Assembly: GCA_964459535.1 (NCBI GenBank)
Contig: CAYWNJ010000001.1
Location: 1-29,226 of the forward strand
Source: an uncultured Rhodobacterales bacterium
GTDB lineage: Bacteria; Pseudomonadota; Alphaproteobacteria; Rhodobacterales; Rhodobacteraceae
Reading direction: 5' to 3'
Length of the DNA stretch: 29,226 nt
Every line of letters starts with the position of its first letter. Positions within the stretch are counted from its first letter, which is position 1. A program made the translations under genes and the position numbers. Positions 1 through 26,382 of the stretch are shown in pieces. Below the pieces are notes generated by a model. That model was not told the DNA's origin. It made no database searches and worked only from the letters and a program-made list of their open reading frames with translations.

Positions 1-90
1 AATCGGAAAAATGAAACATTCAAATTCGCGTTCGAGGCAAAGCCGAGAGGCAGCGAATTTGAATCCAATTTGACAAAACACGCTCTAAAG
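1..90 (+). repeat. Left copy of ~100-bp MITE-like element (5' end cut by window edge)
   Basis: Aligns to 25044-25133 with 3 mismatches (positions 56, 65, 72). It has an internal perfect 11-bp inverted repeat TTCAAATTCGC (19-29) / GCGAATTTGAA (53-63) and ends ...ACAAAACACGCTC-TA at 86-87. Confidence 0.9.
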
Positions 91-108
91 GGGCTGCTCC
101 CGGGCTAG
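88..108 (+). pseudogene. rmlA: Detached last six codons and stop of rmlA (K G L L P G stop)
   Basis: AAG GGG CTG CTC CCG GGC TAG directly follows the TA at the MITE end. It is in frame with ...TAT GGG GCC TAT CTA at 25014-25028 once the MITE is removed. Confidence 0.7.
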
Positions 109-123
109 GGCTGAGGAGCCCCC
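90..123. terminator. GC-rich hairpin downstream of the parB stop, overlapping the rmlA tail and stop; possible terminator
   Basis: GGGGCTGCTC ... GAGGAGCCCC pairs at 9/10 positions. There is no strong U-tract. Confidence 0.35.
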
Positions 124-136
124 TGCCCCAGCTGGC

Positions 137-160
137 AAATGTTTCGCGCGCGAAACATTT
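137..160. promoter_or_regulatory. Perfect 24-bp palindrome, putative parS centromere
   Basis: AAATGTTTCGCGCGCGAAACATTT overlaps the parB stop. It shares the TGTTTC/GAAACA arms of the canonical parS TGTTTCACGTGAAACA. Confidence 0.7.
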
Positions 161-1163
161 ACTTCGGCAAGGACCGGCGCAGATAGTTGAGCAGATCCAT
201 GCGCAGCTCATAGCTCATCTGCTTGCCCGACAGGCGCAGCCAGGTGCCGCTGGCATCCCACTCAGCCTCTAGGTCTTTGGCCACCGGACGCCGCGATACC
301 GCATCTGGCTTGGCGGGCGCTTTGGCCTCCGGCGGCGCGATACGTGCGGCAGACTCGGCCATCATTTTGGTCAGCAGCGCGGCTTCGGCTTCTGCGCTTT
401 GGGGCTTGGCCCCCAAAAGCGCCGCAGACGCCCGCCAAAACAACTCTGGATCCGCCTCAAGCGCTGCGGAAAGACGCAGGCCCAACCGCTCTCCGATCAT
501 ATGGGGAAAGCGCAGCGCCCCGTCGAGCCCGTTCACCACCGGCAGGAAGGACCGGATCTTGGACCGTTTCGCCCGCGAGGCCGAGCGGAAGAGCGTGAGC
601 AGCGCGGCCTTTTCACTCTCAAACACCCCCTGGCGCACCGCCTCTGCCGCAATGCGCGCCCGCTCGTAATAGCTGAGCCCCACACGAATCTCGTTTTCCT
701 CGACCATGGCGAGATAGGTCTCGGACGCCTCGACCGGCGCGCGCAACAGGGCAAGCACCTGGCCCGAATGTTGCCCCGCCTCTGCCAGCTGGGCGATCGC
801 GGTGCAGCGCCGCCAGCCCGAGATCAGACCATAGCCTCCCGTATCCGTCTTGAGTACCTCGATTGGGGTCTGTTGCCCGCGCTCTGCGATCGACTGGCGC
901 AGGGCTGCCATGTCATCCTCTTGGACCACCACCCGGTCGCGCACGATGTGATCCAGAACAATCTCTGCCACCGGCAAAGACAGCACCATCCGCCCCGACA
1001 CCCGCGCCGCCTGCAGCTCTTGGACCACATCAGAGAGCGCCGCGCTTTGCGCAGCATCCGCCGCCACATCTGCAATGGGGGCCCGGGCAAGGGCCGACTT
1101 GGTCTCGGGCGCGGCCCCGAACATCTCGGGGTTGGCGGGGCTGAGGCGTTTGCGTTTGGCCAT
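159..1163 (-). CDS. parB: ParB-family plasmid partition protein
   Basis: 334 aa with a ParB N-terminal motif (LRQSIAERGQQTPIEV...GYGLISGWRR). It lies directly downstream of parA and has an AAGGAG RBS. Confidence 0.9.
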   Translation of the reverse strand: MAKRKRLSPANPEMFGAAPETKSALARAPIADVAADAAQSAALSDVVQELQAARVSGRMVLSLPVAEIVLDHIVRDRVVVQEDDMAALRQSIAERGQQTPIEVLKTDTGGYGLISGWRRCTAIAQLAEAGQHSGQVLALLRAPVEASETYLAMVEENEIRVGLSYYERARIAAEAVRQGVFESEKAALLTLFRSASRAKRSKIRSFLPVVNGLDGALRFPHMIGERLGLRLSAALEADPELFWRASAALLGAKPQSAEAEAALLTKMMAESAARIAPPEAKAPAKPDAVSRRPVAKDLEAEWDASGTWLRLSGKQMSYELRMDLLNYLRRSLPK

Positions 1164-1199
1164 GTCAGTCTCCTTTATCAGGACAAAAGGGCAGGGTGG

Positions 1200-2591
1200 T
1201 TAACCTTTCCCTAGCTCCGCGTGCGCATCCCGGTGCCAGGCGCCCACCAAAAGCTGTTTGAACGCGGCATAGGTCGCATCAAAGGTTTCGCGCCCGCGCA
1301 CATAGGTCTCGCGGTTAAAATCGCGGTAATTGGCCTCGTAGATGCCTTGCACCTGTTCGCCCGCCTGCCCGATGAGCGCGGTAAAATCCTGGCGATGCGG
1401 GGACAGGGTGGGGCCGAGATAGGCCTGGATCAGCGCCGCCAGCTCGGCCTGCTGGGTGCCGTCATAGCGGGTGATGACCGCGCGCACCGCATCCCATTCA
1501 AATTGCAGCCCTTCCCGGCCCAAGGCGCGGGCGGCGACATTCTCGACCTCCTCGATCGAGCCGAACGTGGCGTGCAGCATGTCAAAGAACCGGCCCGTGC
1601 TGTCAAATTCCAAAAACGAAGCGCCGAGCGGGACGAGCAAGATATCCGCCGCCGCCAGCCCATTGATGGTCAGATAGCCCAGGGCAGGGGGCGTATCGAG
1701 GAAGATCACATCATAATCTGACAGAACCCCATCCGCCTCCAGACTGTCCGTCAGCGCATCCCACAGCTTCCAGCCTCGCGCGGCCATGCGCCAAACCGGG
1801 ATCTGAAACTCGGCCCAATAGAGGTTCAGCTGGGCGCCGATCAGGTCGATATTGGGCCAATGGGTCTTTTGAATAAGATCGGGCGCGCGGATCTCCAACG
1901 CTTCGGTGAGCGTGTCATCCAGCGGGGCAGGGGCCTCGCCCCGGTCCAGCCGGCGCTGGTTCTCGGTGCGCAGATGCTGGGCGTAATGCCGGGCCATGAG
2001 CGGAAAGACGGTTTGCCATTCGTCCTGCACCTGGCCCCCAAAGATCGAGGTCATCGATCCTTGGCTGTCCAGATCCACCACCAGCACCTTATAGCCATCG
2101 AGCGCCGCCGACATGGCCAGATGGGCCGCCGTGCTGGTCTTGCCCACACCGCCCTTGAAATTGGCCACCGCCACCAGTTTGGCAGGCAGGTCTTTGGGAC
2201 GGTAGGGCAGGTACTCTTTGGCCTTAGAGCCCTCTTGGCCGAAATGCGCCTTAAGCCGCAGCACCTCGTCAAAGCTAAACCATTTGGCGCCGCCATCGGT
2301 TTCTGAACGCCCTTGGGGCAGGTCCGGGTTTTGCTTCAGCACCCGGCGAAAATGGCCTGTGGCGACGGGGATCAAATAGCGGGTGATCTCCCATGTCGAG
2401 AATAGCCGCAGCTGCCGGTCTGTCCCGGCCTGCAGTCCGCGCGATGTCAGATCGGTGCGCCCCTGGGCACAGGCTGCCGCGATCTGGGCAAAATCATCGG
2501 TGCTGGCGCTGGTGCCAAGGCTGGCTTGCGCCTCTGCAGGGTTGATGTTGAAATAGGGCGGAGGGGTTTGTGGGGCAGGTTTGCGTTGCAT
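1200..2591 (-). CDS. parA: ParA-family partition ATPase with N-terminal extension
   Basis: 463 aa with deviant Walker A VANFKGGVGKTST, DLDSQGS and DTPPALG motifs. Confidence 0.93.
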   Translation of the reverse strand: MQRKPAPQTPPPYFNINPAEAQASLGTSASTDDFAQIAAACAQGRTDLTSRGLQAGTDRQLRLFSTWEITRYLIPVATGHFRRVLKQNPDLPQGRSETDGGAKWFSFDEVLRLKAHFGQEGSKAKEYLPYRPKDLPAKLVAVANFKGGVGKTSTAAHLAMSAALDGYKVLVVDLDSQGSMTSIFGGQVQDEWQTVFPLMARHYAQHLRTENQRRLDRGEAPAPLDDTLTEALEIRAPDLIQKTHWPNIDLIGAQLNLYWAEFQIPVWRMAARGWKLWDALTDSLEADGVLSDYDVIFLDTPPALGYLTINGLAAADILLVPLGASFLEFDSTGRFFDMLHATFGSIEEVENVAARALGREGLQFEWDAVRAVITRYDGTQQAELAALIQAYLGPTLSPHRQDFTALIGQAGEQVQGIYEANYRDFNRETYVRGRETFDATYAAFKQLLVGAWHRDAHAELGKG

Positions 2592-2756
2592 GATCTGGAT
2601 CGCCTGTTTGCGCCTATGTGCGTTCTTTTCCCAAAGTTAGCACAAAATAGCCAACATGGAAAGAAAGATGCAGCACGCCCTGGTTTTTCTAAGTAAATCA
2701 GTCTTTTCCATAAGAACTTCCCTTGGGATCTATGGGCTGGTTTTGCAGCTGGTGGA

Positions 2757-2857
2757 AAAAATATGATGTTAAATTCTGTTATATTTTAAGTTAAGGGCTA
2801 AACCTGTTTGACCCATAACATTGAAATAACGTAATTTTTTGGACTTTCTTTTTCTTT
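2757..2857. other. AT-rich tract next to the iterons (candidate DNA-unwinding element)
   Basis: Visibly A/T-rich sequence inside an otherwise GC-rich module, immediately left of the iterons. Confidence 0.6.
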
Positions 2858-2916
2858 GAGCGACTCTGATCCCCCGATAGAGCGACTCTGATCCCCCATT
2901 AAAGCGACTCTGATCC
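2858..2916 (+). repeat. Three iterons of the plasmid origin
   Basis: AGCGACTCTGATCC occurs at 2859, 2881 and 2903, an exact 22-bp period. Copies 1 and 2 share 18 bp. Confidence 0.9.
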
Positions 2917-2941
2917 GGCGTTCACATCGCTGGACGAGGGC

Positions 2942-2950
2942 TGTGGATAA
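2942..2950 (-). promoter_or_regulatory. DnaA box
   Basis: TGTGGATAA is the reverse complement of the consensus TTATCCACA. It lies between the iterons and the rep start. Confidence 0.85.
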
Positions 2951-3032
2951 CTCTAGGCTGGTGTCACTGAAACCCCGAAGAATCGGGCCCTCATGATCGG
3001 GGCTAACAATCGGCGAAGGCACGAGCAGAGCC

Positions 3033-4046
3033 ATGACCCAAGCAGACGGGCGCTTGCCCGACCGTCATCCCACAGGTGATTTTTTCATCTGCGATATCTT
3101 TGGGGCCGCGCCCAAGGATGATCTGGGCTCGATGGAGCACCCTATCTTTTCGCTTAGCACCCGGCCTGACCGGCGGGTGCTGAGCTATGCCCATAATGGC
3201 ACAGAGGTCACGGTGACCCCGTCTGTGCGCGGGCGGGCCACGATCTATGACAAGGATATCTTGATCTATTGCATCAGCCAGCTTGTCGCGGCGCTGAATG
3301 CGGGTCGCGCGGTCTCGCGCCGGCTTACGCTCAAGGCGCATGACCTTTTGGTGGCCACCAATCGGGACACGGGCGGGGACAGCTATGTGCGGCTGCGCGA
3401 GGCCTTTGAGCGGCTGGCGGGCACGCGTATCACCACCAACATAGCCACCGGCGGGGCTGAGACAACCGCCGGTTTTGGTCTGATCGAGAGCTGGCAGATC
3501 CAGCGCCGCACCAAGGGTGGGCGGATGATCTCGGTGTCGGTGGTGCTGTCGGAATGGCTCTTTCGTGCGGTGGAGGCGCGGGCGGTGCTCACGCTCAGCC
3601 GGGACTATTTTCGCCTCCGTAAACCGCTGGAGCGGCGGATCTACGAGCTGTGCAGAAAGCATTGCGGGCGCCAGCCGGATTGGCGTGTGAGCGTTGCGAT
3701 TTTGCACAAAAAGGCGGGCAGCGCCGCGCCTTTGCGCGTCTTCCGCGCGGCCCTGCGGGGGATTATTGCGGCGCAAACCTTGCCCGATTACCAGCTTGAA
3801 GAAGGGCCAGGCGACATGCTGCATGTGCGCCCTCACCGCCTGATTGAACCAGATGCCGCTGCCCCGCGCCCCAGTGCCGAGGCGCTGGAGGCCGCCCGCG
3901 CGCTAGCCCCTGGCTGGGATGTCTACGCGCTTGAGGCCGATTGGCGCGCCTTCTGGGCCGCCTCTGGGCGGGTGCGCCTCAGCTCAGTGGACAAAGCGTT
4001 TCTGGGCTGGGTCTCTTTTTATGTCTCGAAGAGGGGCGACTTGTGA
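3033..4046 (+). CDS. repA: Replication initiator protein A (RPA family; roseobacter RepA-type replicase)
   Basis: 337 aa with characteristic motifs DFFICDIF..PKDD..SMEHPIFSLS, ATIYDKDILIYCISQ and YFRLRKPLERRIYELCRKHCG. It is divergent from parAB with the iterons in between. Confidence 0.92.
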   Translation: MTQADGRLPDRHPTGDFFICDIFGAAPKDDLGSMEHPIFSLSTRPDRRVLSYAHNGTEVTVTPSVRGRATIYDKDILIYCISQLVAALNAGRAVSRRLTLKAHDLLVATNRDTGGDSYVRLREAFERLAGTRITTNIATGGAETTAGFGLIESWQIQRRTKGGRMISVSVVLSEWLFRAVEARAVLTLSRDYFRLRKPLERRIYELCRKHCGRQPDWRVSVAILHKKAGSAAPLRVFRAALRGIIAAQTLPDYQLEEGPGDMLHVRPHRLIEPDAAAPRPSAEALEAARALAPGWDVYALEADWRAFWAASGRVRLSSVDKAFLGWVSFYVSKRGDL

Positions 4047-4124
4047 CCGCTCAGGCTGTAACGTATTATTTGAAATATCTCATGCGAGAACCAGCGCGGC
4101 GGGCGTTCTAAGAGGGGACAGGGT

Positions 4125-6599
4125 TTGCCCAACAGATCGGCTCCTCTAACGCGTATTTGGCGCATCTTTCAGCGTTACGCTATTGGGCGTTTGCAGTTAA
4201 AGTTACCAACCGGCCCCCTGAAAGGGGGCGGGCATGTGGATAGCGTTATTGTGAAAGGTGGACGCCTGTACCTGGAAGGCTGGGGTATGGGTGATCGCAT
4301 AGGATTACGCCAAGGCCGTGCAACCACTTGGGCCGTACCACATATAAACAAACCAGGGAGTTCCGAGCGCGGTTTTGCTGTCGATCAGCCCTTTGAGCCA
4401 GGCCCCTTTTCGGTCTTAGTCCAACAAGACGGGACTGTGGTTGAAACAAGCTTTTCCGGAGTGACGCATTGGGCTTACGGCCTGCGCCGGTCGCTGCTGT
4501 TGGGGCCTTATCTTGTTGATATCATCCGAGCACTGCCTTTGATATGGCGCTGGCTGTACCGTGGGGAAATGGGCGCGCGGGAAACGCTCAAAGAACGGCT
4601 TTATCTTGTGCCGATCCGTGCTGCCGTGCAGATGCACTCTACTGTGGTGTTGGCCGATGATGCGCCATCTGTAATCGCCCGCCCCGCGGCGCTGATATTG
4701 CCGGTTTACAACGGTTTTGATGTACTCCCAGAGACGTTGCGCCGGATAGCGGCGCATTCTGGAGAGAATTGGAAACTCATCCTCATTGAGGATTGTTCGC
4801 CCGATCCTCAAATCCGCCCCTTTCTGCGTGCATGGTGTGCCGAAAACGCAGACCGGGTGGATCTCGTAGAAAATTCTGAGAACCTTGGTTTCATTGGGTC
4901 TGTGAATGTTGGTCTGTCCCTGGCGGCGCAACAGGCACCAGGCGATCCAGTGGTGTTGGTGAACGCGGATGCTTGGGTGCCGCCCGGATGGTTACCGCGC
5001 CTGCTGGCCCCGCTGGAGGATGTGACGGTTGCCTCGGTTACGCCGCTTTCAAATGATGCAGAGCTGTATTGCGTCCCCACACTCTGCCAACCCCATGCGC
5101 TCGCCGACGGAATGGTAGATCGGCTCGACGTTGCTGCGCAAACCCTACGCCCAGCACACGATATCGACATTCCGACCGGTGTGGGTTTTTGTATGGCGCT
5201 TGCGCCCCATTTTTTGGCACAGGTGCCGAATTTTGATCCAGCTTTCGGCCGGGGCTATGGTGAAGAGGTCGATTGGTGCCAGAAAACCCGTGCCTTGGGT
5301 GGACGGCATGTCGCAGCTGTGAATCTTTTTGTGGAACACCGTGGTGGGGCCTCTTTTGGGCAGACGCAAAAGACGCTTCTTTTGGCGCGTAACGGCGCTG
5401 AAATTAGCCGGCGCTATCCAAGCTATGATGCGCAGGTACAGGATTTTATTCGCTCTGACCCGTTGGTGACATTTCGCCTAGCGCTTGGGTTAGACTGGGC
5501 CGCATTATCTCAAAAAGGCGATGCGGTGCCGATCTATCTGGCGCATGCGATGGGTGGTGGGGCCGAGGCCTGGCTGCAACGCCGCCTTAAGGAACATACG
5601 CAGATGGGCGATGCCGCGGTCGTGCTGCGTGTCGGCCTAGGGCGACGCTGGAACATTGAACTGCATTCAGAGTTGGGTATGACCCAAGGGCTGACGGATG
5701 AAACAGAGCTGGTACGCACATTGCTACATCGTCTGCCCCGTCGGCGGATAATTTACTCCTGTGGGGTTGGCATGCGCGAGGCGCATCAGTTGCCAGGCAT
5801 CTTGTGTGAGCTGGCATCAAATGGTGAGCACCGCTTGGAGGTTTTGTTCCACGATTTTTTTCCGATCAGCCCGTCTTACACTTTGCTGGGCGAGGATGGG
5901 GGTTATCGTGGGGTGCCGCGCGGAGGCAGTCCGAGTGAGAATGATCACGCTCATAGCTTCGATGCTCCAAATGAACGTATCTCGCTGGCACATTGGCAAG
6001 CGAGCTGGGGAGAACTCATAACCGCGGCGCATCGAATCACAGTTTTTTCTCAGAGCAGTGCCGCGATTGTCAGGCAGGTTTGGCCCGAGGCGGCCCCACG
6101 CATTCAGGTCCGCCCCCACACCTTACACAGCCCACTGTTGCCTGTTGCGTCAGCCACTGACGCGAGGACGCTTACGATCGCCGCTTTGGGCAACATAGGG
6201 GCACAAAAAGGGGCCGGTGTCCTAGAGCAATTGAGCCGGAAGCTTGCACAGCGAAATGACTTACGTTTGGTCATTATTGGGCATATCGACCCCAGCTATA
6301 GCCTATCTAAGCCTGGGATTGTTCACGGATCTTATGAGCCCAAAGACATTCCGGCTTTGATCCAACGCTACCAAATTTCGGGCTGGATTATCCCGTCCAT
6401 TTGGCCCGAGACCTTTTCATTTACCACCCATGAGGCAATAGCGACCGGTCTGCCGGTGCTGGTATTTGACTTGGGTGCCCAAGCCGATGCTGTGGCAGAT
6501 ATAGACCAAGGATATGTGCTGCCACTTGATGCAATCGAAGAGGGGTTAGAGCCTGATTTCCTCTGTGACATCTTACGGCGAGGCAGACAGACGCCATGA
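4125..6599 (+). CDS. Multidomain glycosyltransferase (GT2 domain plus C-terminal GT-B/GT4-like domain), candidate capsule polymerase
   Basis: GT2 motifs LILPVYNG, LILIEDCSPD, ENLGFIGSVN, VLVNADAWV and GYGEEVDWC. C-terminal IPSIWPETFSFTTHEA..TGLPV. TTG start with GAGGGG 7 nt upstream. Confidence 0.85.
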   Translation: MPNRSAPLTRIWRIFQRYAIGRLQLKLPTGPLKGGGHVDSVIVKGGRLYLEGWGMGDRIGLRQGRATTWAVPHINKPGSSERGFAVDQPFEPGPFSVLVQQDGTVVETSFSGVTHWAYGLRRSLLLGPYLVDIIRALPLIWRWLYRGEMGARETLKERLYLVPIRAAVQMHSTVVLADDAPSVIARPAALILPVYNGFDVLPETLRRIAAHSGENWKLILIEDCSPDPQIRPFLRAWCAENADRVDLVENSENLGFIGSVNVGLSLAAQQAPGDPVVLVNADAWVPPGWLPRLLAPLEDVTVASVTPLSNDAELYCVPTLCQPHALADGMVDRLDVAAQTLRPAHDIDIPTGVGFCMALAPHFLAQVPNFDPAFGRGYGEEVDWCQKTRALGGRHVAAVNLFVEHRGGASFGQTQKTLLLARNGAEISRRYPSYDAQVQDFIRSDPLVTFRLALGLDWAALSQKGDAVPIYLAHAMGGGAEAWLQRRLKEHTQMGDAAVVLRVGLGRRWNIELHSELGMTQGLTDETELVRTLLHRLPRRRIIYSCGVGMREAHQLPGILCELASNGEHRLEVLFHDFFPISPSYTLLGEDGGYRGVPRGGSPSENDHAHSFDAPNERISLAHWQASWGELITAAHRITVFSQSSAAIVRQVWPEAAPRIQVRPHTLHSPLLPVASATDARTLTIAALGNIGAQKGAGVLEQLSRKLAQRNDLRLVIIGHIDPSYSLSKPGIVHGSYEPKDIPALIQRYQISGWIIPSIWPETFSFTTHEAIATGLPVLVFDLGAQADAVADIDQGYVLPLDAIEEGLEPDFLCDILRRGRQTP

Positions 6600-7795
6600 G
6601 CACCAAGCGCAGCATGCTAATTCATATTGGGGCTCCAAAATGTGGCTCCTCGGCCCTACAATATACTCTGAGCCAGGATCCAATTTTGAATTCCCCAGAG
6701 CGCCCCGAACATCGCTACATGTCTGTTCTGTCTGGTGAGGGCGGGTTGGAATTGTTATCTGGCGCGGCGCTGACCCGATATGCTGAAACAACGCCATTTG
6801 GTTATACCAGCTTTCCGGATTTTGACCCCAAGCAAGACCCCGCCCCGATTGCCGAAGCCATCATGCAGGCTCATAGGTTGGGCCAGGAAGAAAATTTCAT
6901 ACCGATCCTTTCTTCGGAGGGTTGGATCAACGCGCCAGGTATTTTTGCTGATATTTTGGCTGATATGAGCTACCCAAGGGTCGATGTTGTCGTCTTTTTG
7001 CGGGCTCCGGCAGAGTGGCTGAACTCGGCTTATTGGCAATGGGGCGTTTGGCTAGAAGGCAGTGTTGCCGACTGGTTGCGGCAGGGTGGGATACGCTATG
7101 ATTTTGGTCATCAGTTGAAGTTATGGAGCCGGCTGCCCCATGTGCGGCTGCATGTGCGCATGACCCATGGCGATGTTTTGGGCCAATTTACTGATGCAAC
7201 AGGCGTGCGGCTGAAAAAAACGGGGCAACGCAATACAGCCTCTCCGCGCAGTTTGATCGGTGTGTTGCGGCGGAACCGGGTTTTTCGCGTCGATGGTCAT
7301 GACAGCAAAACAGAGTTCGTTTTCCAGCGATGGTGCCGGGTGGATCTTGGGCCCAGTCTGTGGGCCTTTGATGCTGAACACATGTCTGAATTGGCGACCC
7401 AGCACATGAGCGAACTGGCCCTTTTAGAACCTTTCGTGAGCGCCTCAGACATTCAGGCCCTTGCTCACAGCCCGCCACATGTCCCAACCACAGAAGACGA
7501 TTTTCGCGTGGCCAGTGAGCTGTACACACTGCATTCCGCCTTGCTTCAAGGTGTGAGCCGCGCCTGTGCAGCAGCTAAGCGTCCCGCGCCAGATCTTCCG
7601 GCACTTCCCCCTCAGAAGGAGCGGATTATCGCCATCGAAGACATCTCCGCTTGGGATGAATGTATTTGCCGTGCACTGGAGGCTCTTCTAGCGGCGGACG
7701 CCGCTGCACGCATTATGCCCAACAGAATCGCAGCTCAAATTAAGGCACGCACACGCCGACTGTTTAATCGGATGCAAAAGTGGACCAATGGCTGA
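6596..7795 (+). CDS. Sulfotransferase-fold (P-loop-like) protein
   Basis: N-terminal LIHIGAPKCGSSALQ resembles the 5'-PSB loop. Later ILSSEG and VVVFLRAP..WLNSAYWQ motifs. The start overlaps the upstream stop (ATGA). Confidence 0.65.
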   Translation: MSTKRSMLIHIGAPKCGSSALQYTLSQDPILNSPERPEHRYMSVLSGEGGLELLSGAALTRYAETTPFGYTSFPDFDPKQDPAPIAEAIMQAHRLGQEENFIPILSSEGWINAPGIFADILADMSYPRVDVVVFLRAPAEWLNSAYWQWGVWLEGSVADWLRQGGIRYDFGHQLKLWSRLPHVRLHVRMTHGDVLGQFTDATGVRLKKTGQRNTASPRSLIGVLRRNRVFRVDGHDSKTEFVFQRWCRVDLGPSLWAFDAEHMSELATQHMSELALLEPFVSASDIQALAHSPPHVPTTEDDFRVASELYTLHSALLQGVSRACAAAKRPAPDLPALPPQKERIIAIEDISAWDECICRALEALLAADAAARIMPNRIAAQIKARTRRLFNRMQKWTNG

Positions 7796-8489
7796 TCGCT
7801 GACCTGACCCTAGCCCCACACGGGGACGCTTTCGGGCATAGCTCTGACGAATAGCGAATAACTAAAAACGGTCCGCCCGTATTGAGCAAAGGCGAAGGCC
7901 GATCCAAGGGTGAGAACTGGTGCACACCCGAGGTGGTCGTGTTATCAAGCGCCACATTCACTTGCGCATCACCGCTCTGGCCCCAGCCAAAGCCACCGAC
8001 GCGCAGCAATTTTCCAAAACGAGTATCATGCACATTGGATTGCACAGCATCTCCGGTGATGTAGCCATCGACCACCGCCCCTTGCCCCCATCTGGTGTGG
8101 TCCGGCTGAAAGGCTGCGGATCGTAGAAGGTGCGGAGGATCAGAAAAGACCCCGGTGGGGCGTTTTCCCGACAAACATGTTTGAGGGGGAGGCATCGCAG
8201 TGGCTGAAGATAACAGCGTAACCCATTGCCCAGCAGGCGATTGGGCAAAGCCAAATCTGCCGAGAGGCGGTCAGGCGACGAAGGGGACGGTTCGAGCACA
8301 ATGGCGCGTGACCCCAAGATTATCTTGTGGCAGGCTGCGGCGAACGCGGAGATCAGCGGTTCCAATGTGCAGGGTATGTTGCCCGAAGCCGTTGAAAACC
8401 AGCTTGCTGAAACAACGTCACCTTATCGCCTTGCAGCGACACTGGCGAGTTCCTAAACAACGGTTTATAGTACCAAGATTGGAACAAAC

Positions 8490-9902
8490 ATGATCACGCC
8501 TATTCTTCTTTGTGGTGGTTCTGGCACGCGACTTTGGCCGCTGTCACGCAAGAGTTTTCCGAAGCAGTTTGTCGATTTATTAGGGGATGAGAGCTTGTTC
8601 CAGGCGTCTGCTCGACGCTTTGTCGGGCCGGAATTCTATGATCCGCTTGTGGTTACGGGGGATGATTTTCGCTTTGTCGTTTCAGAACAACTGGCCGAGA
8701 TAGACATTAAACCGTCCGATATCCTGATCGAGCCCGAGGGACGCAATACGGCGCCAGCTGCCATTGCGGCTGCGCTTTATGTCGCGCAACAATCGTCTGA
8801 CGCCTATGTGCTGTTGGTGCCTTCAGATCATGCCGTGGCCAACCCTGAGGCGTTCCGCGCGAGCGCGCTTTTAGGTCTCAAAGCTGCTGAGGCTGGGCAG
8901 ATCGTAACATTTGGCATAGCTCCACAGCATGCAGAGACTGGCTATGGCTGGTTAGAGGCAGGTGACGAAATAGAGCCAGGCCTGTCTGACTTGGTTCGTT
9001 TTATCGAAAAGCCTAACGCCCTTCAGGCTAAGGAACTGTTCGAAAACGATCAGTTCTTGTGGAATTCAGGGGTCTTTTTGGCCAAAGCTTCGGTTCTGAT
9101 TGAGGCATTCCAAACTTATGCGCCTGCGATCTACAAGACAGTTTTAGCTGCGATGAACGCTGCTAAGAAAGATTTAGAATTCACGCGTATCGACCCAGAT
9201 CTTTGGGCCAAGGTCCCTGAGGATTCCATTGATTATGCTGTGATGGAAAAAGCCCAGAATATTAGCGTCGTGCACTTTAATGGGGATTGGTCTGATCTAG
9301 GCAGTTGGGAAGCGGTTTGGCGCGAATCTGAAACTGATACGGTAGGTAATTCGGTCTCTAATAACTCTACAGCCTATAATTGTGAAAACGTGCTTTTGCG
9401 CTCTGAAACACCTGACGTAGAATTGGTTGGGATCGGTCTTCAGAATATAGTTGCCGTAGCCACCCGTGATGCCGTCATGGTCGCTGATATTTCGAAAACT
9501 CAAAATGTGAAAGAAGTGGTCAGTGAGTTAAAGGCGCGCGGCACCAAGCAAGCAACCACTTTTCCCATTGATCGTCGACCTTGGGGGTGGTTTGAAAGTC
9601 TCGTCATTGGTGAACGGTTCCAAGTGAAGCGTATCTATGTGCATCCTGGCGCTGCTCTGAGTTTGCAAAGCCATCATCATCGTTCGGAGCATTGGATCGT
9701 CGTGCAAGGTACAGCCCTGGTGACTATAGACGACGATGTTAAGTTGGTTACCGAAAACCAGTCGGTCTATATTCCTCTTGGCGCAGTTCATCGGATGGAG
9801 AACCCTGGCAAGGTGCCGATGATCCTTATCGAGGTGCAAACTGGCTCTTATTTGGGCGAAGATGACATCATTCGCTATGAAGATATTTACGCGCGCTCTT
9901 AA
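8490..9902 (+). CDS. manC: Mannose-1-phosphate guanylyltransferase / mannose-6-phosphate isomerase
   Basis: 470 aa with PILLCGGSGTRLWPLSRKSFPKQF, EPEGRNTAPA, WSDLGSW and a cupin C-terminus RPWG...LSLQSHHHRSEHW. Confidence 0.96.
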   Translation: MITPILLCGGSGTRLWPLSRKSFPKQFVDLLGDESLFQASARRFVGPEFYDPLVVTGDDFRFVVSEQLAEIDIKPSDILIEPEGRNTAPAAIAAALYVAQQSSDAYVLLVPSDHAVANPEAFRASALLGLKAAEAGQIVTFGIAPQHAETGYGWLEAGDEIEPGLSDLVRFIEKPNALQAKELFENDQFLWNSGVFLAKASVLIEAFQTYAPAIYKTVLAAMNAAKKDLEFTRIDPDLWAKVPEDSIDYAVMEKAQNISVVHFNGDWSDLGSWEAVWRESETDTVGNSVSNNSTAYNCENVLLRSETPDVELVGIGLQNIVAVATRDAVMVADISKTQNVKEVVSELKARGTKQATTFPIDRRPWGWFESLVIGERFQVKRIYVHPGAALSLQSHHHRSEHWIVVQGTALVTIDDDVKLVTENQSVYIPLGAVHRMENPGKVPMILIEVQTGSYLGEDDIIRYEDIYARS

Positions 9903-10089
9903 GGGAGATTTCAAGATCTAGGGCACTTCGCGCTAGGGTCCTGACCCTAGGCCGGGTGGCAGCGCATGACGTCGAGGGACATCCCGTTCCCATCTGTGCT
10001 GGATGTCAGAGACCAAGTGCATTATGCCCGATACAAACGAATCTTGTAGCGCTATTTCACCTGCAGCGTGCATGTTCTCCGGGGTTGTC

Positions 10090-11283
10090 ATGAACCGAAT
10101 ATTTGTCGTCGATCCAGTTTGTGCCATGGAATACGGGCACACGCTTAACGCCATAAAATATTTCAGAGATATGGCCGCCAACTATTGTAACGACGCTGTT
10201 AGCGTTGCCTCATATCATTTGCCGGGTACTACAAAAGAGGATGGAATAGAGCGGTTCTTCGAGTTTCAGTACGGCTTTGGTTTGAAGATTGACCGACGCG
10301 ATGGGGAACGAAGCGCCTTTAACGCCCATTTTTTAGGTCAAAGCCCAGAAGGACGTTCTACCACAGATTTCCTTGAATTGATTCAACGCCATAATATCGG
10401 CAGCGATGATGCAATCATGTTCCCTGGTGTGGATTACTATAGCTTGCTTGGGATTGTCGCGGTACTCGACACGCGCGCGCCGCACACTTTGCCATTGCTG
10501 TATATCCGTTTTATTGGCGTTCTGGAAAACGCGGCTCTTGGACTGACGGGCGAGGCGGCCTTTGAGAAATGCATCGCCGTACTCAATGCCTATGTTCAGC
10601 AAGGCAGGCGCGTGTCGGTCTGTGCGGAGACGCCAAAATATGCGCAGCGTCTACGGGAACGCTTGATATGCCCTGTCATTACAGTGCCCTATTTTTCACC
10701 CGAGGTGGTGCCGTTGCCTGCCCCAGAAAAGTCCGATCGTACAACCTTCCTTGCCGGGGGAAGCGCACGGTCCGACAAAGGTTTTTTCAACCTGGTCGAG
10801 ATTATCCAAAAAGCCAACGCGCGCGCAGGGGCGGAAAATCTGCATTTTATTGTGCAATCCCTGCCAGATTCACAGGTAGCCGAGAATGAGGTTTATATTC
10901 GTGCGCTGTTGTCTCAGCCGAATGTAACTTTGATGGCGGGGCAGGTCAGCTATGATGAGATCATCGAAGCTTTCGCAGCCTCTCATGTGGCTCTGATGCC
11001 TTATGATACCGCGACCTATGCCTGGCGCGGTTCAGCCATGCTGATGGAGGCAATGATGTTTGAGCGGCTGGTGATCGCGCAAGCGGGCACGGGTTTTGCC
11101 GATCAGGCGCGGTTCTATAATGCGGGCGAGCTCGTGGAAACGATTGACGATTTTGCCGAAGCGATCAGCTATTTGTCGCGCGTGCCACATCGGCATTTGC
11201 ACGCTCGGGCCGCCCAGGCGCGCACCCATTATATGGAAGATGTTAAAACCGCCTGCGATCAGTGGTTGAGAGGAACAGAGTAA
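10090..11283 (+). CDS. Divergent GT-B fold glycosyltransferase
   Basis: Motifs GSARSDKGF and SHVALMPYD...RGSAMLMEAM. The start is placed at MNRIFVVDP (10090) rather than 10003. Confidence 0.65.
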   Translation: MNRIFVVDPVCAMEYGHTLNAIKYFRDMAANYCNDAVSVASYHLPGTTKEDGIERFFEFQYGFGLKIDRRDGERSAFNAHFLGQSPEGRSTTDFLELIQRHNIGSDDAIMFPGVDYYSLLGIVAVLDTRAPHTLPLLYIRFIGVLENAALGLTGEAAFEKCIAVLNAYVQQGRRVSVCAETPKYAQRLRERLICPVITVPYFSPEVVPLPAPEKSDRTTFLAGGSARSDKGFFNLVEIIQKANARAGAENLHFIVQSLPDSQVAENEVYIRALLSQPNVTLMAGQVSYDEIIEAFAASHVALMPYDTATYAWRGSAMLMEAMMFERLVIAQAGTGFADQARFYNAGELVETIDDFAEAISYLSRVPHRHLHARAAQARTHYMEDVKTACDQWLRGTE

Positions 11284-12827
11284 TGGTCAAACCTACGCTG
11301 CTCTTTGTTGACCACGCATTTCACAAAAAGACACATTCTACAGATTTTATTGTCGAGCTGCTTCAAGACGCCTTTGAGGTCACATCGCTTTATATTGAAC
11401 CAGACGCGCCGGTTGATCCAGCAATGGCCGAGACGGAGCACGAATATGTCTTCATCTGCCAAATGGACTTTCTGACACCTTTGTTTTTAGCGGCTGGCAA
11501 AAAGGTGACAGTGTCGCAGATGTACGACGGCTCAGGCGGGCTGCCCGTAGAACATTTCTTGCTGAACCGGCAAGCGCAATATGTGAACTTTTGCGTCGCG
11601 TTGCACAGTATGACGCTTAAAGCCGGCTCGCGCAGTTTTTTGACTCAATATGCCCTGGACCCAGAAGATTTTGAACCCGTGGACAACTTTGACGAACTGC
11701 GTGGGTTCTTCTGGCAACGCCTCCCGGACTCACAAGTCTCAGTGCCGCGCGTGCTGTCATTAATTGATGGTCAGTTAGACCGCCTACACCTGCATGTCCC
11801 GTCGGACAACAATACGGTTTTTGATAAGTCGCTTATTTCTAAAGCTAAAATGAAGGTGACCTTATCAGACTGGTTCGAAGACCCCAAAGATTTTCAAAAT
11901 CTGTTGCTTCAGTCCAATGTCTTTTTTGCACCGCGCCCAGCCGAAGGTATTGGAATGGCCTTTTTAGAGGCTATGGCGCGCGGAATGCTGGTGATTGCAA
12001 ATGATTTGCCGACCCACAATGAATATATCCATTCGCTGCAGAACGGGATTTTATTCAAGAATACATCCGAACATATCGATCTACGGTCTATACGAAAGGA
12101 AATTCCCCGTATTGGGCACAATGCCCGCCTCACCCTGCAGCGAAAACGTGAGGATTGGCTTGCCGACCGAGAGCCAATTTGCGCCTTTGTGAAGTCCGGT
12201 GCAGCGAGTGTTGTACCTCATGGCTTGCCCGGCCATCGCGATGTAATCCTGGAAATCATAAATGCCTATCAGCGCGGACTTGGCCCCTATATTGAGGCGC
12301 TGCAAAGTAAGGCCGAGTTCGTCAGCGCTTTTGGCACCTGGGACAAAGTTGTGAAATTTTCAAAACCACAACGAAGCAGAGAGGCTACACATGAAAGCGC
12401 TTATGATGATCGGTCCGTGATCGTCTTTGGTTATGGCAACGGGCGATACATGTTGGAGACCGGCTGGTCCGATATTGAACCTGGCCATGTCTGGGCAATT
12501 CAACGCAGTGCGAAGATATCCTGCCCAACGGCAAGACTCTTTGATGCTAAAAAGGTGCCCCATTCCTGTATCACAGCAATTGAACTGGAAATGCGGGGTC
12601 TTGCATCCTATGACGTGTCAGTGAAATTTGCAGGTAAGAGGCTAGGTAAGGTCGCGTTGAAGTCAAATTTCGAGGCCACCCGACTGACGTTGCCCAAATC
12701 TATGGATTTGGCTGATCTTACGGAGTTTGAACTGGGGTTTGAGCTAGGTCACCAGATAAAAGTACCCAAGGTAGAAGCCCGCGATCTGGCCTTTGCGATC
12801 AAATCACTCACGTTACATTTTGGATAG
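11283..12827 (+). CDS. GT4-family glycosyltransferase with C-terminal beta-sandwich-like domain
   Basis: SNVFFAPRPAEGIGMAFLEAMARG has the EX7E signature. TAATG stop/start coupling at 11281-11285. C-terminal GWSDIEPGHVW module. Confidence 0.85.
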   Translation: MVKPTLLFVDHAFHKKTHSTDFIVELLQDAFEVTSLYIEPDAPVDPAMAETEHEYVFICQMDFLTPLFLAAGKKVTVSQMYDGSGGLPVEHFLLNRQAQYVNFCVALHSMTLKAGSRSFLTQYALDPEDFEPVDNFDELRGFFWQRLPDSQVSVPRVLSLIDGQLDRLHLHVPSDNNTVFDKSLISKAKMKVTLSDWFEDPKDFQNLLLQSNVFFAPRPAEGIGMAFLEAMARGMLVIANDLPTHNEYIHSLQNGILFKNTSEHIDLRSIRKEIPRIGHNARLTLQRKREDWLADREPICAFVKSGAASVVPHGLPGHRDVILEIINAYQRGLGPYIEALQSKAEFVSAFGTWDKVVKFSKPQRSREATHESAYDDRSVIVFGYGNGRYMLETGWSDIEPGHVWAIQRSAKISCPTARLFDAKKVPHSCITAIELEMRGLASYDVSVKFAGKRLGKVALKSNFEATRLTLPKSMDLADLTEFELGFELGHQIKVPKVEARDLAFAIKSLTLHFG

Positions 12828-13799
12828 GCCACGGCGTCGCCTTTTGCGGGGCTGGCGTGCGGGCTTTTTGACTTTAGCGTCAAGCGCGCTGAGAATCTGA
12901 TAAAGATTATTAAGCTCTTGCATACGTTGCCCATTTTGACTTTGTAAGGATGAGACCGCACGTTTGAGTTCGTCAATCTGAAGACGTTGGTTGTAAAGCA
13001 ACCGTGCCAGATCCGAGGTCTGCCTCGTCGTTGTCACATAGCGATCTCGCGCGTATTGCGGCTCTTTATCATAGCCAAAACGCGCCATGACGTCACCGCA
13101 TTGTGCCCATAGGTTGGCTTGTGTCTCTGGGCTAAGAAATTGGGTAAATCCGCCGCTCTGGCCGCTGCGGTTATGTTCGTTCACATCAGCATGGGCACGC
13201 CAAAAGGCCGCTTCTATCACCGCCTGGTTAAATGCCGCTGCATCTGGGCATAAACCGGTTTTTTGCACCACATCTTGCAGCCAAGTAATGGGATCATAAG
13301 CAATATCTTCATAGCGGTACAGTAATGTGTGCTCCGGTTCGCTAGATAGTACATCTAAATAATTTCTGGCATGAGCAAGGTAGTTCGCAATCTCGTCTTG
13401 TGCATAAGTGTCAAGATCACGCCTAATGTGGCGGCCGCGTTCATTAAGATCCGTTAACTGGCCTTCACGAAAAACCGAATGGATATGTCCGTACGCGAAA
13501 TATTGCGACACGACACAATCACGCAGATCACGCATCACGATGACTTTTTGGTACTTTTCCGTACGGAACCTTTCAAAGGCCGCATCATATTCGCGGAAGG
13601 GGCCGAATATGGCATTCTGTCTGGGAAGACGGTCATACGCCTCTGTCGGAATGTCGGACGTTCGCACACCGTTGTTATAGGCCTCTTCCAACGGATTATG
13701 TAATTCCCACCCACTGGAGAGTGCTAAAATGTGCATTAACCGCGCTGTTATCGAGCTACCACCCCGAATAAGTCCAAAAAGGACAACAGGTCTTGTCAT
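12813..13799 (-). CDS. Sulfotransferase-domain protein with C-terminal coiled-coil-like segment and basic tail
   Basis: KVIVMRDLRDCVVSQY is a 3'-PB-like motif, followed by LLYRYED and HNRSGQSGGF. The 5'-PSB-like GLIRGGSS is non-canonical. Confidence 0.75.
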   Translation of the reverse strand: MTRPVVLFGLIRGGSSITARLMHILALSSGWELHNPLEEAYNNGVRTSDIPTEAYDRLPRQNAIFGPFREYDAAFERFRTEKYQKVIVMRDLRDCVVSQYFAYGHIHSVFREGQLTDLNERGRHIRRDLDTYAQDEIANYLAHARNYLDVLSSEPEHTLLYRYEDIAYDPITWLQDVVQKTGLCPDAAAFNQAVIEAAFWRAHADVNEHNRSGQSGGFTQFLSPETQANLWAQCGDVMARFGYDKEPQYARDRYVTTTRQTSDLARLLYNQRLQIDELKRAVSSLQSQNGQRMQELNNLYQILSALDAKVKKPARQPRKRRRRGLSKM

Positions 13800-14323
13800 C
13801 GGTGCACTACCTTCTCAGAGTAATAAATATAGGGCGCAATCAGAAATCACCTACTTGTAAAGCCATACCGCCCCTCTAACAGGTTTTTACGCCAATCAAA
13901 TGACCTGCTCCCCGCTGGCCCTTCATTGATAACGAGAAATTGCCCGTTTGGGCAAGCGCGCAGGGTGCGGGGCTCTCAACTGACTCAACTGTCCGGCGGG
14001 CTCAGACGGGCGTTTGATTGCCAAGCGACAAATGTAGTCTGACCACTGCCCTCTCTCATCGAAACTGCGTTTCGACGGCCGGGCAGCGGGACAGGGTGTT
14101 GTGCAGCAATGTCACCAGAGGGGCGCTGTAACCGCATCGCCAGAGGGGGTCAGTTGCGGATGTACGAAAACGGCCCCCTCTTTGATAAAGTCATCGTACC
14201 AGCCAAATGAAACACAGTTTGAGGCGGAAACGACCATCTTGTAGCTATATCAGCGGGCGGTCCCCTTACGGACACGGCTTGGTGAGCTAAACGTACTATT
14301 TCGCCCCCAGCCGTAAGCGTCCC

Positions 14324-14986
14324 TTAACTGAGCATACGCATGTTTTGGTTATGGTGCGCGATACCTTCTTCGATGTCTTCATAATAGGTCATCTGCCCCT
14401 GATCTAGCACCGCGACCGCATTGCACAGCTCTCGCACCTGATCGACCGAATGCGTCACCACGACGGCACCAGAATATTTCATTCGCTCTAGGAAAACTTC
14501 GGAGCTTTTCGCGCGAAAGGCGGCGTCCCCCACGGCCGTAATTTCATCAACCAGATATGTATCAAAACCAATGCCCATCGACACCCCAAACGCCAAACGT
14601 GACATCATCCCCGAAGAGTAGGTCCGAAACGGTAACTTGAAATGCACACCTAGACCGGCAAAACTTTCAACAAATTCAATTAGTTCATCCGCATCCACCC
14701 CGTAAATGCGTGCGACAAAACGCGTATTCTGCGCCCCCGTTAGTTCACCGTGGAAAGAACCGGCAAAACCCACAGGCCATGAGATAGAGCCCGTGCTGAC
14801 AATCCGCCCAGAGGTTGGTTCATAAGTACCAGCAATCATCTCCAGAAGTGTCGATTTACCGGCCCCATTGCGACCCAAAAGCCCAACCGAGCTACCAGTG
14901 GGGAACACTGCGTTGATGTTGTCGGCCACAACCTTTTTGCGACCATGGAGATGGAAAACTTTGGTGACATTCTCAAACTTGATCAT
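14324..14986 (-). CDS. kpsT: Capsular polysaccharide ABC transporter ATP-binding protein
   Basis: 220 aa with Walker A GRNGAGKST, YSSGMMSRLAFG signature and YLVDEITAVGD..F. There is no C-terminal carbohydrate-binding domain. Confidence 0.93.
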   Translation of the reverse strand: MIKFENVTKVFHLHGRKKVVADNINAVFPTGSSVGLLGRNGAGKSTLLEMIAGTYEPTSGRIVSTGSISWPVGFAGSFHGELTGAQNTRFVARIYGVDADELIEFVESFAGLGVHFKLPFRTYSSGMMSRLAFGVSMGIGFDTYLVDEITAVGDAAFRAKSSEVFLERMKYSGAVVVTHSVDQVRELCNAVAVLDQGQMTYYEDIEEGIAHHNQNMRMLS

Positions 14987-15004
14987 GAACCCAAAGCCCC
15001 GTGT

Positions 15005-16309
15005 CTACCGGCGATCCTTAACTGAATAATAGATCAGCACCGCCGTTGCCCAGCCCAAGAACAGGAACAGGGAAATCAGGAACTGCAAAGACAACCGGTG
15101 TGGATATTCCGGAGTTTCAGCGATGGTCGGTTCAAGATAAGCGGCCAGATAACGGCTCTTACGACGGGCCTCCGTAAGAGCTGCGTCATAAGCGGCAAGA
15201 GCGGAAAGATAGGCGCGTTCTGCAAATTCGCGGTCAACGATTAATCGCTCATAATCGCCCACAACACCAGCCATCCCACGACCATCCGTATTGGATGTGA
15301 CGCTGTTAACACCCACCTTCGCCCGCTCGGCTTCAATCCGTTCGGCAATAACCTGCAAGCGTTGCTCTGCTCGAGCGATACGGGGATCACTGGCTAAGAC
15401 AGTGCTACGTAGCACATCAAGCTCAATCAACACCTCCGCTTGACGCACCTGCAAGCTGCCAACAAGGCCAGTTTGGTTGCGTAAATCGACCTCTGGATCG
15501 ATCATTTGATTTTCATTGCGAAAGCTTGTGACATTTTTTCGCGCTGTTCTGAGCCGGGCTTGTGCATCTTCCAGATCAGCCCGCGCATAAGAGATCGCAT
15601 CATCGCGCGCAATCGCGCTGAGATCATTGATGAGCTCAGCACTGCGCTCAAAAAGCATCGCTGTGATGGCATGAGCATCTTCCGGGGTAAAAGCACGCAC
15701 CTCTACATCGAGCAATCCCGAGCCGGCACCATAGGTGACGTGGACCATCTTGTTCCAATATTCGAGCAGTTCTTCGATCGAAGAATCTTGCTGTAAAGTA
15801 AAAACGACATCGTCCGCAGGCTTGCTCCAGATCGATCTCAGATCAAGCTGTGCGTCAATTTCCCGGACCAAACGCTGGCTCTTGATATACTTGAAAAGGA
15901 TGTCTGTATCATTTGAACTCGAACCAGAGAACTGAGTGAAACCACTTAGGAGCTCAAGCGGCGAGCTTGTTTCTTCACGGCGCACGGCAAAGCCCATACG
16001 CGAGGCATATTGGTCTGCGGCCCAGCCCCAAAGATAAATGCCCGTCCCACCCGATGGTGCGACCACAAACAGTAAAAACGTCAAAATCGTCAGCACATGA
16101 CGCGCGCGAATCCAACTGCGCCGCACTGGCGGAGGCACTTTGGAAACAAGAGGAGCCCCAGCGCCGCCCGTGCCCGTGTCGGGCAATATTTGAGAGGGTG
16201 CGCTTGGAATAGTTGGCGCAGGGAACGCAGGCGGAGGGGGCGCCTTGCGCGGCACGTTCCCTTCCGGGACAGAGCGCAAATGTGGTTGGCTGCCGTTTTG
16301 TCCGGTCAT
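15005..16309 (-). CDS. kpsE: Capsule export polysaccharide co-polymerase/adaptor (KpsE/RkpR type)
   Basis: Two TM segments flank a long coiled-coil region. Motifs AADQYAS...AVRREE and C-terminal PTIAETPEYPHR. Confidence 0.88.
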   Translation of the reverse strand: MTGQNGSQPHLRSVPEGNVPRKAPPPPAFPAPTIPSAPSQILPDTGTGGAGAPLVSKVPPPVRRSWIRARHVLTILTFLLFVVAPSGGTGIYLWGWAADQYASRMGFAVRREETSSPLELLSGFTQFSGSSSNDTDILFKYIKSQRLVREIDAQLDLRSIWSKPADDVVFTLQQDSSIEELLEYWNKMVHVTYGAGSGLLDVEVRAFTPEDAHAITAMLFERSAELINDLSAIARDDAISYARADLEDAQARLRTARKNVTSFRNENQMIDPEVDLRNQTGLVGSLQVRQAEVLIELDVLRSTVLASDPRIARAEQRLQVIAERIEAERAKVGVNSVTSNTDGRGMAGVVGDYERLIVDREFAERAYLSALAAYDAALTEARRKSRYLAAYLEPTIAETPEYPHRLSLQFLISLFLFLGWATAVLIYYSVKDRR

Positions 16310-16389
16310 TGGGCGTGTTGTGGGCTTTGATTTATGACCATAAAATGATGAATACCGTTTTCATGTCCATGTCAACAAGCGGGCGGGCG

Positions 16390-17199
16390 ATGACAGATGT
16401 AAATGCAGTTCCACCACGCGCGGACACGCGGCGGCGGTTTCGCATGCTAAGGGCGGTTTCTGCTTTGATGCTGCGCGAGATGAGCTCGAGCTATGGCCGC
16501 TCACCCGGAGGCTATATGTGGGCGATTTTGGATCCGGTGGGCGGTATCGCACTTTTATCGCTGGTCTTTGCTGCGTTTTTCGACAAGCCGCCGCTGGGCA
16601 TCAGCTTTCCCACTTTTTATGCTACGGGAATGCTTCTTTTTGGCATGTTCAATGATGTACACAGCAAAATTGCGCTGTCATTGCTCTACTCTAAACAGCT
16701 CTTGGCCTATCCGACAGTAACATTTGTCGATGCGATCCTCGCCCGCTTTATCCTCAACACGATGACCGAATGCCTCGTGGCCTATATCGTTTTCACAGTC
16801 TGTTTTGCTCTGTTTGAAACGCGAACAAATATGGACTTTCCCGTCATCTTACAGGCATGGGCTCTGACCGCTTACTTGGCGCTCGGGATCGGCACGCTGA
16901 ACTGTTACCTTTTTGCCCGCTTCGAGGTCATGCAGCGCGCTTGGTCGATCATGATGCGGCCAGGGTTTATTCTATCAGGGACATTTTTTATCTTTGATAC
17001 ACTGCCAGAGAAGTACCAGAACTGGCTGTGGTGGAACCCCTTGGTCCACAATATCGGTATATCGCGATCCGGGTTCTACAGCGAATATGATGCCGCATTC
17101 GCCTCTCCTACCTATGTGATCGGGTTGTCGACGATATGCCTTGTGACGGGGCTGATGCTGCTGCGTAGGCATTACCGAACACTGTTGAGCAATCACTGA
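16390..17199 (+). CDS. kpsM: Capsule ABC transporter permease
   Basis: LREMSSSYGRSPGGYMWAILDP and LWWNPLVH...RSGFY are ABC-2 motifs, and the protein is hydrophobic. The start is uncertain (16345-16390). Confidence 0.88.
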   Translation: MTDVNAVPPRADTRRRFRMLRAVSALMLREMSSSYGRSPGGYMWAILDPVGGIALLSLVFAAFFDKPPLGISFPTFYATGMLLFGMFNDVHSKIALSLLYSKQLLAYPTVTFVDAILARFILNTMTECLVAYIVFTVCFALFETRTNMDFPVILQAWALTAYLALGIGTLNCYLFARFEVMQRAWSIMMRPGFILSGTFFIFDTLPEKYQNWLWWNPLVHNIGISRSGFYSEYDAAFASPTYVIGLSTICLVTGLMLLRRHYRTLLSNH

Positions 17200-17371
17200 T
17201 CTGCCCGCTTTTTAAGCCTTTGGCCTAGCAACTGTATTTCTCAGAAGTGTTGCTTGGTCCAAGTTTGTCGGGATTTACAGAGCGCAGCAGCTAGGCCTTT
17301 TGTTCAACTTTACGGTTTGCTAAAGAAACCTCCAAGTTGAGGGGTAGCGAAACAGCCATGCGATTTAACAA

Positions 17372-18307: not shown

Positions 18308-18422
18308 CAGCTCGTCTATCCAGATTGCGATCTATCGCACTTATTTCCAGGCATACCGCAGCCATCTGCTTGGATGAAGAATACATGCAAAAGGCTGTGA
18401 GCACTCAAGATTGGACATACAT

Positions 18423-22047: not shown

Positions 22048-22056
22048 GATCAGACC

Positions 22057-23829: not shown

Positions 23830-24268
23830 TGGGGCCGCTTTCAGCAGTTGGCGAAATAGTCACTTAGGCTCGACCCAGGAATGAATATCCCGATTACCCA
23901 AGGACAAACTCTGCGATGTACCCAGACACCCAGTATTGTCGATTTCAAACCGCCATACGGACAATACACCTGATGCCCCATCGATGCTGTAGGAAACCCC
24001 AGATCGTGTGCTCACAAATAGGCCAGGGCCCACGCAATCGGCAACCCTAACCCACTATTTTCAATGTCGAACTCTACCGACCGAGCATATGCAAGCGCAC
24101 TCATGTCTCTATTCACCCCCACGGCTTAATGCCTTCAGGAGCTATCGAGTGGCTGTGGGTATAGGATTTTCACTACAGGTGCAGTGATCTTCTTGCGCTC
24201 AGACCATAAGAGAGGGTTTGTCCGCTTCCGTCTATGATTTTCGCGTATCCGTCCACTCAAACGAAGGA

Positions 24269-24717: not shown

Positions 24718-24776
24718 TGGTGGACACTATCACCACACTCCTAGCCGCGTCAGAGCAGGGAAACCGGACGGATACG

Positions 24777-26379: not shown

Positions 26380-26382
26380 GCT

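Follow-up and report, generated by a model that had tools for sequence, protein, structure and literature searches.

The longest contig of an uncultured Rhodobacterales draft genome probably joins one turn of a circular RepA-type plasmid to chromosomal DNA at a shared MITE

The window analysed here, a stretch of 29,226 nt, is the whole of contig C1, the longest among the 668 contigs of the draft genome (3.06 Mb, 86% complete) of an uncultured Rhodobacterales bacterium. Results of our analysis make it quite likely that this contig is a path through an assembly graph, which runs one turn around a plasmid and then exits into the chromosome. As part of this explanation, and with the same good degree of confidence, positions 88-25130 can be regarded as a single complete round of a circular plasmid of 25,043 bp, which exists today and is of the roseobacter RepA/ParAB type. 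The separation of the rmlA stop codon from the rest of this gene by 25 kb, as well as the apparent opening of the circle, are most likely products of that path and not traces of a biological event. The G+C content of the plasmid part (positions 88-25026) is 54.3%, as compared to 57.8% in the chromosomal flank (positions 25131-29226) and 58.0% in the whole draft.

The rmlA remnant is located in the plus strand at positions 24777-25028 (its start is approximate) and comprises residues 49-80 and 248-291 of RfbA, with which it shares 78% and 73% identity, respectively, in a tblastn comparison. It matches, in blastn searches, annotated rfbA genes of 216 plasmid records in two pieces that are ~725 nt apart in the targets, which indicates an internal deletion of ~460 nt. 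In addition to this deletion, the remnant has acquired a frameshift and a MITE insertion, and its first 48 codons at the 5' end have been replaced by an IS fragment (positions 24301-24726, minus strand, with a weak match to Pfam HTH_Tnp_1), so that no intact frame of ~290 aa is left. Judging from these sequence features, the remnant is a pseudogene of RmlA/RfbA, glucose-1-phosphate thymidylyltransferase. Logan contigs of two runs all stop at position 24726 and then diverge into different sequences. This branching indicates that the IS fragment is a multi-copy repeat and that rmlA is truncated at the border of this repeat. An odd joint of position 24776 to position 25062, with 285 nt skipped and a 29-nt side, was seen in both Logan runs. 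An intact rmlA (75% identical to Gemmobacter RfbA, with the tail KRLVQ) is present elsewhere in the genome (C326:2353-3216), and hence dTDP-rhamnose may still be made after the plasmid copy has been lost.

The remnant ends with ...KTQYGAYL (ACG CAA TAT GGG GCC TAT C and TA at positions 25008-25028), its last leucine codon being composed of C and of the TA dinucleotide (positions 25027-25028) that opens a MITE. The last six codons of rmlA, KGLLPG, and the stop codon (AAG GGG CTG CTC CCG GGC TAG) are at positions 88-108 of the plus strand, after the TA at positions 86-87 that closes a partial copy of the same MITE. A first-pass annotation, made from the sequence of the window, had described both ends of this split gene accurately. 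Its statement that RmlA proteins terminate a few residues after the YGxYL motif holds as well: this motif is followed by six residues in 74 and by five residues in 29 of 114 RmlA homologues, and the RfbA proteins encoded by Phaeobacter and Gemmobacter plasmids end with YGAYLERLLN and YGAYLARLIHE. The third residue of the tail is leucine in 104 of the 114 homologues and the fourth is leucine or isoleucine in 87, while lysine at the first position and glycine at the second one are the second commonest residues there. Scored against the profile of RmlA tails, KGLLPG with its stop codon reaches 14.2 bits, which is the median of true tails; the rebuilt C-terminus thus resembles, and is not unrelated to, the C-termini of RmlA homologues. 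A 144-aa ORF that was called on independent metagenome contigs runs from the rmlA remnant through TA and the MITE to KGLLPG and the stop codon. Positions 88-108 are the end of the rmlA remnant. The contrary assumption that they are a coincidental short open frame could draw on the length of the tail, only six codons, but is extremely improbable, as the independent contigs physically join the tail to the remnant and relatives share the order of the rmlA stop codon, a palindrome, and parB. A chance match was also rejected on statistical grounds, since the score of the tail was not reached by any of 200,000 27-mers drawn at random from the genome.

The comparison of window positions 88-1250 with 400 genomes of the same family and with a plasmid collection revealed no close relative, parB being at most 72% identical at the DNA level, and the plasmid is absent from the same-genus genome. 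As no near-identical isolate DNA was found, the junction was compared with distant relatives instead. The nearest DNA matches of parB and rfbA are in Phaeobacter, Salipiger, Sulfitobacter, and Gemmobacter plasmids. In three of 19 parB loci of relatives (L035, L045, and L038) rmlA converges on parB. The rmlA gene of L038 ends with YGAYLKRLLPAR. In L045, the rmlA stop codon is followed by ~30 nt, the palindrome GTTTCGCGCGCGAAAC, and parB, which is the order at window positions 106-161, and therefore the context of bases 88-160 in this relative is the same and not a different one. In the window, the palindrome (24 nt, core GTTTCGCGCGCGAAAC) is at positions 137-160, where rmlA and parB converge, and shares bases with the stop codon of parB. 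Several other Rhodobacterales genomes have it next to their parB, among them L045, in which it is located between rmlA and parB. Moreover, it adjoins the second parB homologue of the studied genome (C40:4216), and another one is present at C380:651. These locations make it a candidate parS-like partition site or a candidate bidirectional terminator shared by partition modules of RepA-type plasmids.

The plasmid part of the window starts with a replication and partition region. The parB gene (positions 159-1163, minus strand, 334 aa) matches annotated ParB of roseobacter plasmids, although its match to Pfam ParB_N is weak and below the curated cut-off of Pfam. It is followed by parA (positions 1200-2591, minus strand, 463 aa; Pfam AAA_31, CbiA, and MipZ) and by the gene of the plasmid replication initiator RepA (positions 3033-4046, plus strand), whose product matches Pfam PF10134 RPA with an E value of 4.9e-96. 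The parAB genes are divergent from repA and upstream of it, and thus the RepA domain and adjacent parAB, by which RepA-type Rhodobacterales plasmids are recognised, are both present. The cargo of the plasmid is a polysaccharide cluster at positions 4125-23829, which comprises genes of glycosyltransferases, manC, genes of GDP-mannose dehydratase and epimerase, an ABC-2 exporter, and sulfotransferase-like genes.

The circularity of this plasmid is documented by metagenome contigs, which were found by exact matching of ParB and the read-through ORF. The exact ParB protein is present on four metagenome contigs of 20-50 kb. Three contigs, ERZ27264700 k141_772499 (25,039 nt), ERZ27264732 k141_1174512 (25,059 nt), and ERZ27264626 k141_914622 (1,629 nt), contain the closed junction, and all of them read from the rmlA remnant through one MITE to KGLLPG, the stop codon, and parB. 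The k value of these assemblies, 141, exceeds the length of the MITE, and hence real sequence underlies the closed junction. Contig k141_1174512 begins and ends with the same 16 nt (window positions 7793-7808), which gives a circle of 25,043 nt, and this length is equal to the spacing between both MITE copies in the window. Unlike k141_1174512, contig k141_772499 is broken at about window position 14670. By coordinates, its ends are 5 nt apart at positions 14667-14673 and do not overlap; no obvious repeat is seen there. The sequence of one closed-junction contig (L053) is 100% identical to window positions 1-11163 and differs from positions 15202-25133 at the three MITE positions only. A further scaffold, S084 scaffold_1263 (25,104 nt), terminates inside the MITE with plasmid-type bases. 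The plasmid is, therefore, a closed circle that is present today, possibly in the form of a tandem multimer instead of a single circle. The circular plasmid with rmlA converging on parB, which had been proposed in the first-pass annotation, is supported by the closed-junction contigs, by the 16-nt overlap, and by the three loci of relatives.

The MITE that interrupts rmlA belongs to a family with 60 matches in the draft genome, 32 of them end to end, and with no coding capacity. Together with its duplicated TA, the insertion in rmlA is 102 nt long, in frame, free of stop codons, and placed at the leucine codon six codons before the end. The TA dinucleotide, which has a frequency of 2.65% in the genome, flanks the end-to-end copies at the left in 30 of 32 cases, at the right in 22, and at both sides in 20, and this supports the proposed insertion of the element into a TA within the final codons of rmlA. 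The terminal inverted repeats are imperfect, with matches at 17 of 22 positions. These sequence features are consistent with a TA-targeting MITE of IS630/Tc1-mariner type. Thirteen matches to the MITE are not more than 60 nt from contig ends, which indicates that the family regularly breaks the assembly. The second repeat family of the window, unrelated to the 100-nt MITE, is found in the chromosomal flank at positions 27341-27555. This repeat of ~170-210 nt, at which Logan word depth rises to 56-117, has at least 40 copies in the draft, which are 80-95% identical, and is probably another MITE family.

The two MITE copies of the window are not equivalent. The full copy in the plus strand, which was correctly assigned in the first-pass annotation as opening with the TA at 25027-25028, is now delimited at positions 25027-25130, with the 100-nt element at positions 25029-25128 and the closing TA at positions 25129-25130. 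The copy at the contig start (positions 1-87, plus strand) is partial, without the first 17 nt of the element. Positions 1-87 and 25044-25130 are the same apart from three differences, namely a, c, and g at positions 56, 65, and 72 versus c, t, and a at positions 25099, 25108, and 25115. The former are the plasmid-type bases, and the closed-junction contigs (L053, L054, and L055) carry the same plasmid-type right half. The latter are characteristic of a MITE copy of the chromosome, which begins with TAAAGCTTG, while the plasmid copy begins with TAGCGCTTG. As the right copy of the window has the plasmid-type left end, TAGCGCTTG, and the chromosomal-type right half, it is a hybrid. Both parental copies are flanked by TA at each side and are identical to each other over 67 nt (the region of positions 25033-25098).

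The chromosomal parent of this hybrid was identified in independent contigs, which were found by the exact look-up of the DUF6280 protein. They contain an unoccupied site, in which a ydjM-like gene is followed by TA, the MITE, TA, and the sequence of the window from position 25131 onwards, and the MITE of this site carries c, t, and a, as do window positions 25099, 25108, and 25115. To the left of this MITE are the ydjM-like gene and a gene of ABC ATPase, not the plasmid. Empty-site contigs are present in ERZ27264700, a sample that contains a full plasmid contig too, as well as in ERZ23498827 and ERZ27264626. In the window, the chromosomal flank extends over 4.1 kb after the second MITE copy (positions 25131-29226, plus strand) and contains the DUF6280 gene (positions 25277-25597, minus strand), efp (positions 25816-26379), the DUF599 gene, and the start of glcD. 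The exact look-up of the 187-aa EF-P gave no match, which can be explained by the use of a 243-aa start by gene callers. In the binned genome, 71 nt are missing between the end of the ydjM-side contig, C444, and the chromosomal MITE; the terminal 55-mer of C444 was not found in any other binned contig, and none of the 31-mers of the chromosomal left junction (ydjM side) are present there. Contig C444 is 99.2% identical to its metagenome counterpart L064 (ERZ27264700 k141_1140771), with 15 mismatches in 1,811 nt, while the efp-side flank of the window differs from the metagenome contig at two MITE bases and is otherwise identical. This disparity indicates that the bin may mix closely related strains.

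The way in which the window contig came into being can be deduced from traces of its assembly. In the genome from which it derives, head-to-tail overlaps of exactly 55 nt were seen at 106 contig ends and a common inward 55-mer at 38, whereas neither kind of match was found at 56 nt, which is the signature of a de Bruijn assembly with k = 55. Window positions 1-55 are exactly the same as positions 25044-25098, base 56 is the first difference, and the only two occurrences of the 55-mer of positions 1-55 in the binned genome are within this contig. The position of the first difference shows that the contig starts at the branching 55-mer vertex where both MITEs diverge. Terminal redundancy of a simple circular contig as the whole explanation was rejected because of the 4.1 kb of chromosomal DNA after the second MITE copy.

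In a graph of k = 55, the plasmid and the chromosomal MITE copies, being identical over 67 nt, would collapse into one shared edge. The contig would then start at the last shared 55-mer, enter the plasmid-type branch with the rmlA tail and parB, circle the loop once, cross the shared edge again, and exit on the chromosomal branch towards efp. De Bruijn assemblers clip tips in their graphs, and on this basis the edge by which ydjM should enter the shared stretch probably disappeared, either because of a gap in coverage or because it was clipped as a tip, and the loop would be left with a single exit. We infer that the hybrid joint was made by the assembler and not by recombination in cells.

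The same layout may be read as a genuine structure of the genome. In a Campbell-type integration, the 25-kb plasmid would have recombined with the chromosomal MITE via the 67 identical bases, in at least a part of the population, and would now be an episome next to efp, reversibly inserted without an integrase and flanked by two hybrid MITE copies. The right junction of this episome, and the beginning of the left one, would then be what is seen in the window. The graph of k = 55 gives the same 56-mers for a free plasmid with an empty site and for the integration, and hence the window alone does not discriminate between them. The composition of the hybrid right copy is exactly that which a crossover within the 67 shared bases would produce, and the plasmid-type right half of the left copy agrees with such an event, too. 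In addition, a second assembly of k = 55 contains a scaffold (S078 scaffold_106677, 1,369 nt) that runs from rmlA through the MITE to chromosomal-type bases. However, this scaffold ends 16 nt past the vertex, and its overlap with the efp-side scaffold is exactly 55 nt long, so that it shares the weakness of the window. Depth estimates, which are of word depth in Logan contigs that break at the MITE and do not span the hybrid junctions, diverge: in run X1 the plasmid (~6) and the nearest 2 kb of the flank (5.4) are similar, as integration would predict, while in run X2 the depth of the plasmid (~7-8) is ~2.3 times that of the flank (2.2-4.7). The assemblies with k larger than the MITE length speak against integration, as they show the parental junctions only. 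The look-up of the ydjM-like protein gave empty-site contigs only, with no reciprocal ydjM/parB junction, the exact look-up of the window-type junction ORF found no other record, and the contig starts exactly at a graph vertex and not in chromosomal DNA. An integrated episome would be recognised by both of its junctions, whereas the right hybrid junction is seen in k=55 assemblies only. Taken together, we consider such an integration rather improbable. A minority integrated form is conceivable, as 67 nt of perfect identity would be enough for occasional RecA-dependent recombination, but it is slightly less probable still that in a part of the population the plasmid is integrated next to efp by RecA-type recombination across these 67 bases and coexists with the free circle. 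If this were true, MITEs would act as portable, integrase-free attachment sites, by which small plasmids shuttle into and out of the roseobacter chromosome.

It is still far less probable that the circle is a former one, opened within the MITE, and that it is now a linear replicon or a segment that has been rearranged for good. Such a reading takes the last step in the order of events of the first-pass annotation literally, and the layout of the window, which starts inside the MITE, would agree with it if considered alone. However, the window is a complete contig, one of 668 in the draft, in which the ends of contigs are repeatedly close to this MITE, and the start of the window is a 55-mer vertex. 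Also, no telomere-like or hairpin end was found. The closed-junction contigs contradict the opening of the circle, and the breaks of the unit-length contigs are elsewhere (at positions 7793-7808 and ~14670). As assemblies of higher k from this sample series contain both the intact circle and the unoccupied chromosomal site, this part of the first-pass annotation is not supported as a biological event.

The contig viewed as a graph path has counterparts among the contigs of circular replicons that repeats have made chimeric or over-extended in de Bruijn assemblies of short reads. As in these contigs, its terminal redundancy is equal to k, it starts at a branching k-mer, the loop is crossed once, and the exit leads through a repeat common to another replicon. 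The case is not an unusual one, and the repeat is here not an IS or an rRNA operon but a 67-nt identical stretch of two MITEs. The layout of repeat, plasmid, repeat, and chromosome, with hybrid repeats, is also that of Campbell-type, Hfr-like, IS-mediated integration, but it differs from the latter in that one hybrid junction is present, only where k is smaller than the shared stretch, and the reciprocal one was not found. The MITE itself, with its length of 100 nt, terminal inverted repeats, TA flanks at most copies, multiple matches, and non-coding character, is similar to TA-targeting IS630/Tc1-mariner MITEs. Unlike in typical MITEs of this kind, its plasmid copy (102 nt) is in frame and stop-free, and as a consequence a read-through ORF is called.

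Roseobacters widely carry RepA-type plasmids that combine a rhamnose operon with genes of polysaccharide export and determine biofilm formation (Michael et al. 2016, PMC5030684). The plasmid described here resembles these RepA 'biofilm' plasmids (PMC5030684) by RepA of the PF10134 family, divergent parAB, polysaccharide genes with an ABC exporter, and plasmid-borne rmlA (rfbA). In contrast to roseobacter rhamnose plasmids, it is only 25 kb in size, its rhamnose operon is reduced to the broken stub of rmlA, with no rmlB, rmlC, or rmlD in the window, and a GDP-mannose-derived pathway and sulfotransferase-like genes are present instead. It is an ordinary roseobacter plasmid of the RepA type, small in size, in which a decayed rhamnose gene is interrupted by a common MITE, and nothing in it is outside known biology.

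For the curation of this genome, our results mean that the longest contig of the draft is probably a chimera of plasmid and chromosome made at a 67-nt repeat, and that readings based on an integrated or opened plasmid are untrustworthy without read-level support. The split stop codon of rmlA is a valid sign of a circular replicon in a linearised contig, and it dates the insertion of the MITE to the time after the arrangement of rmlA and parB had been established.
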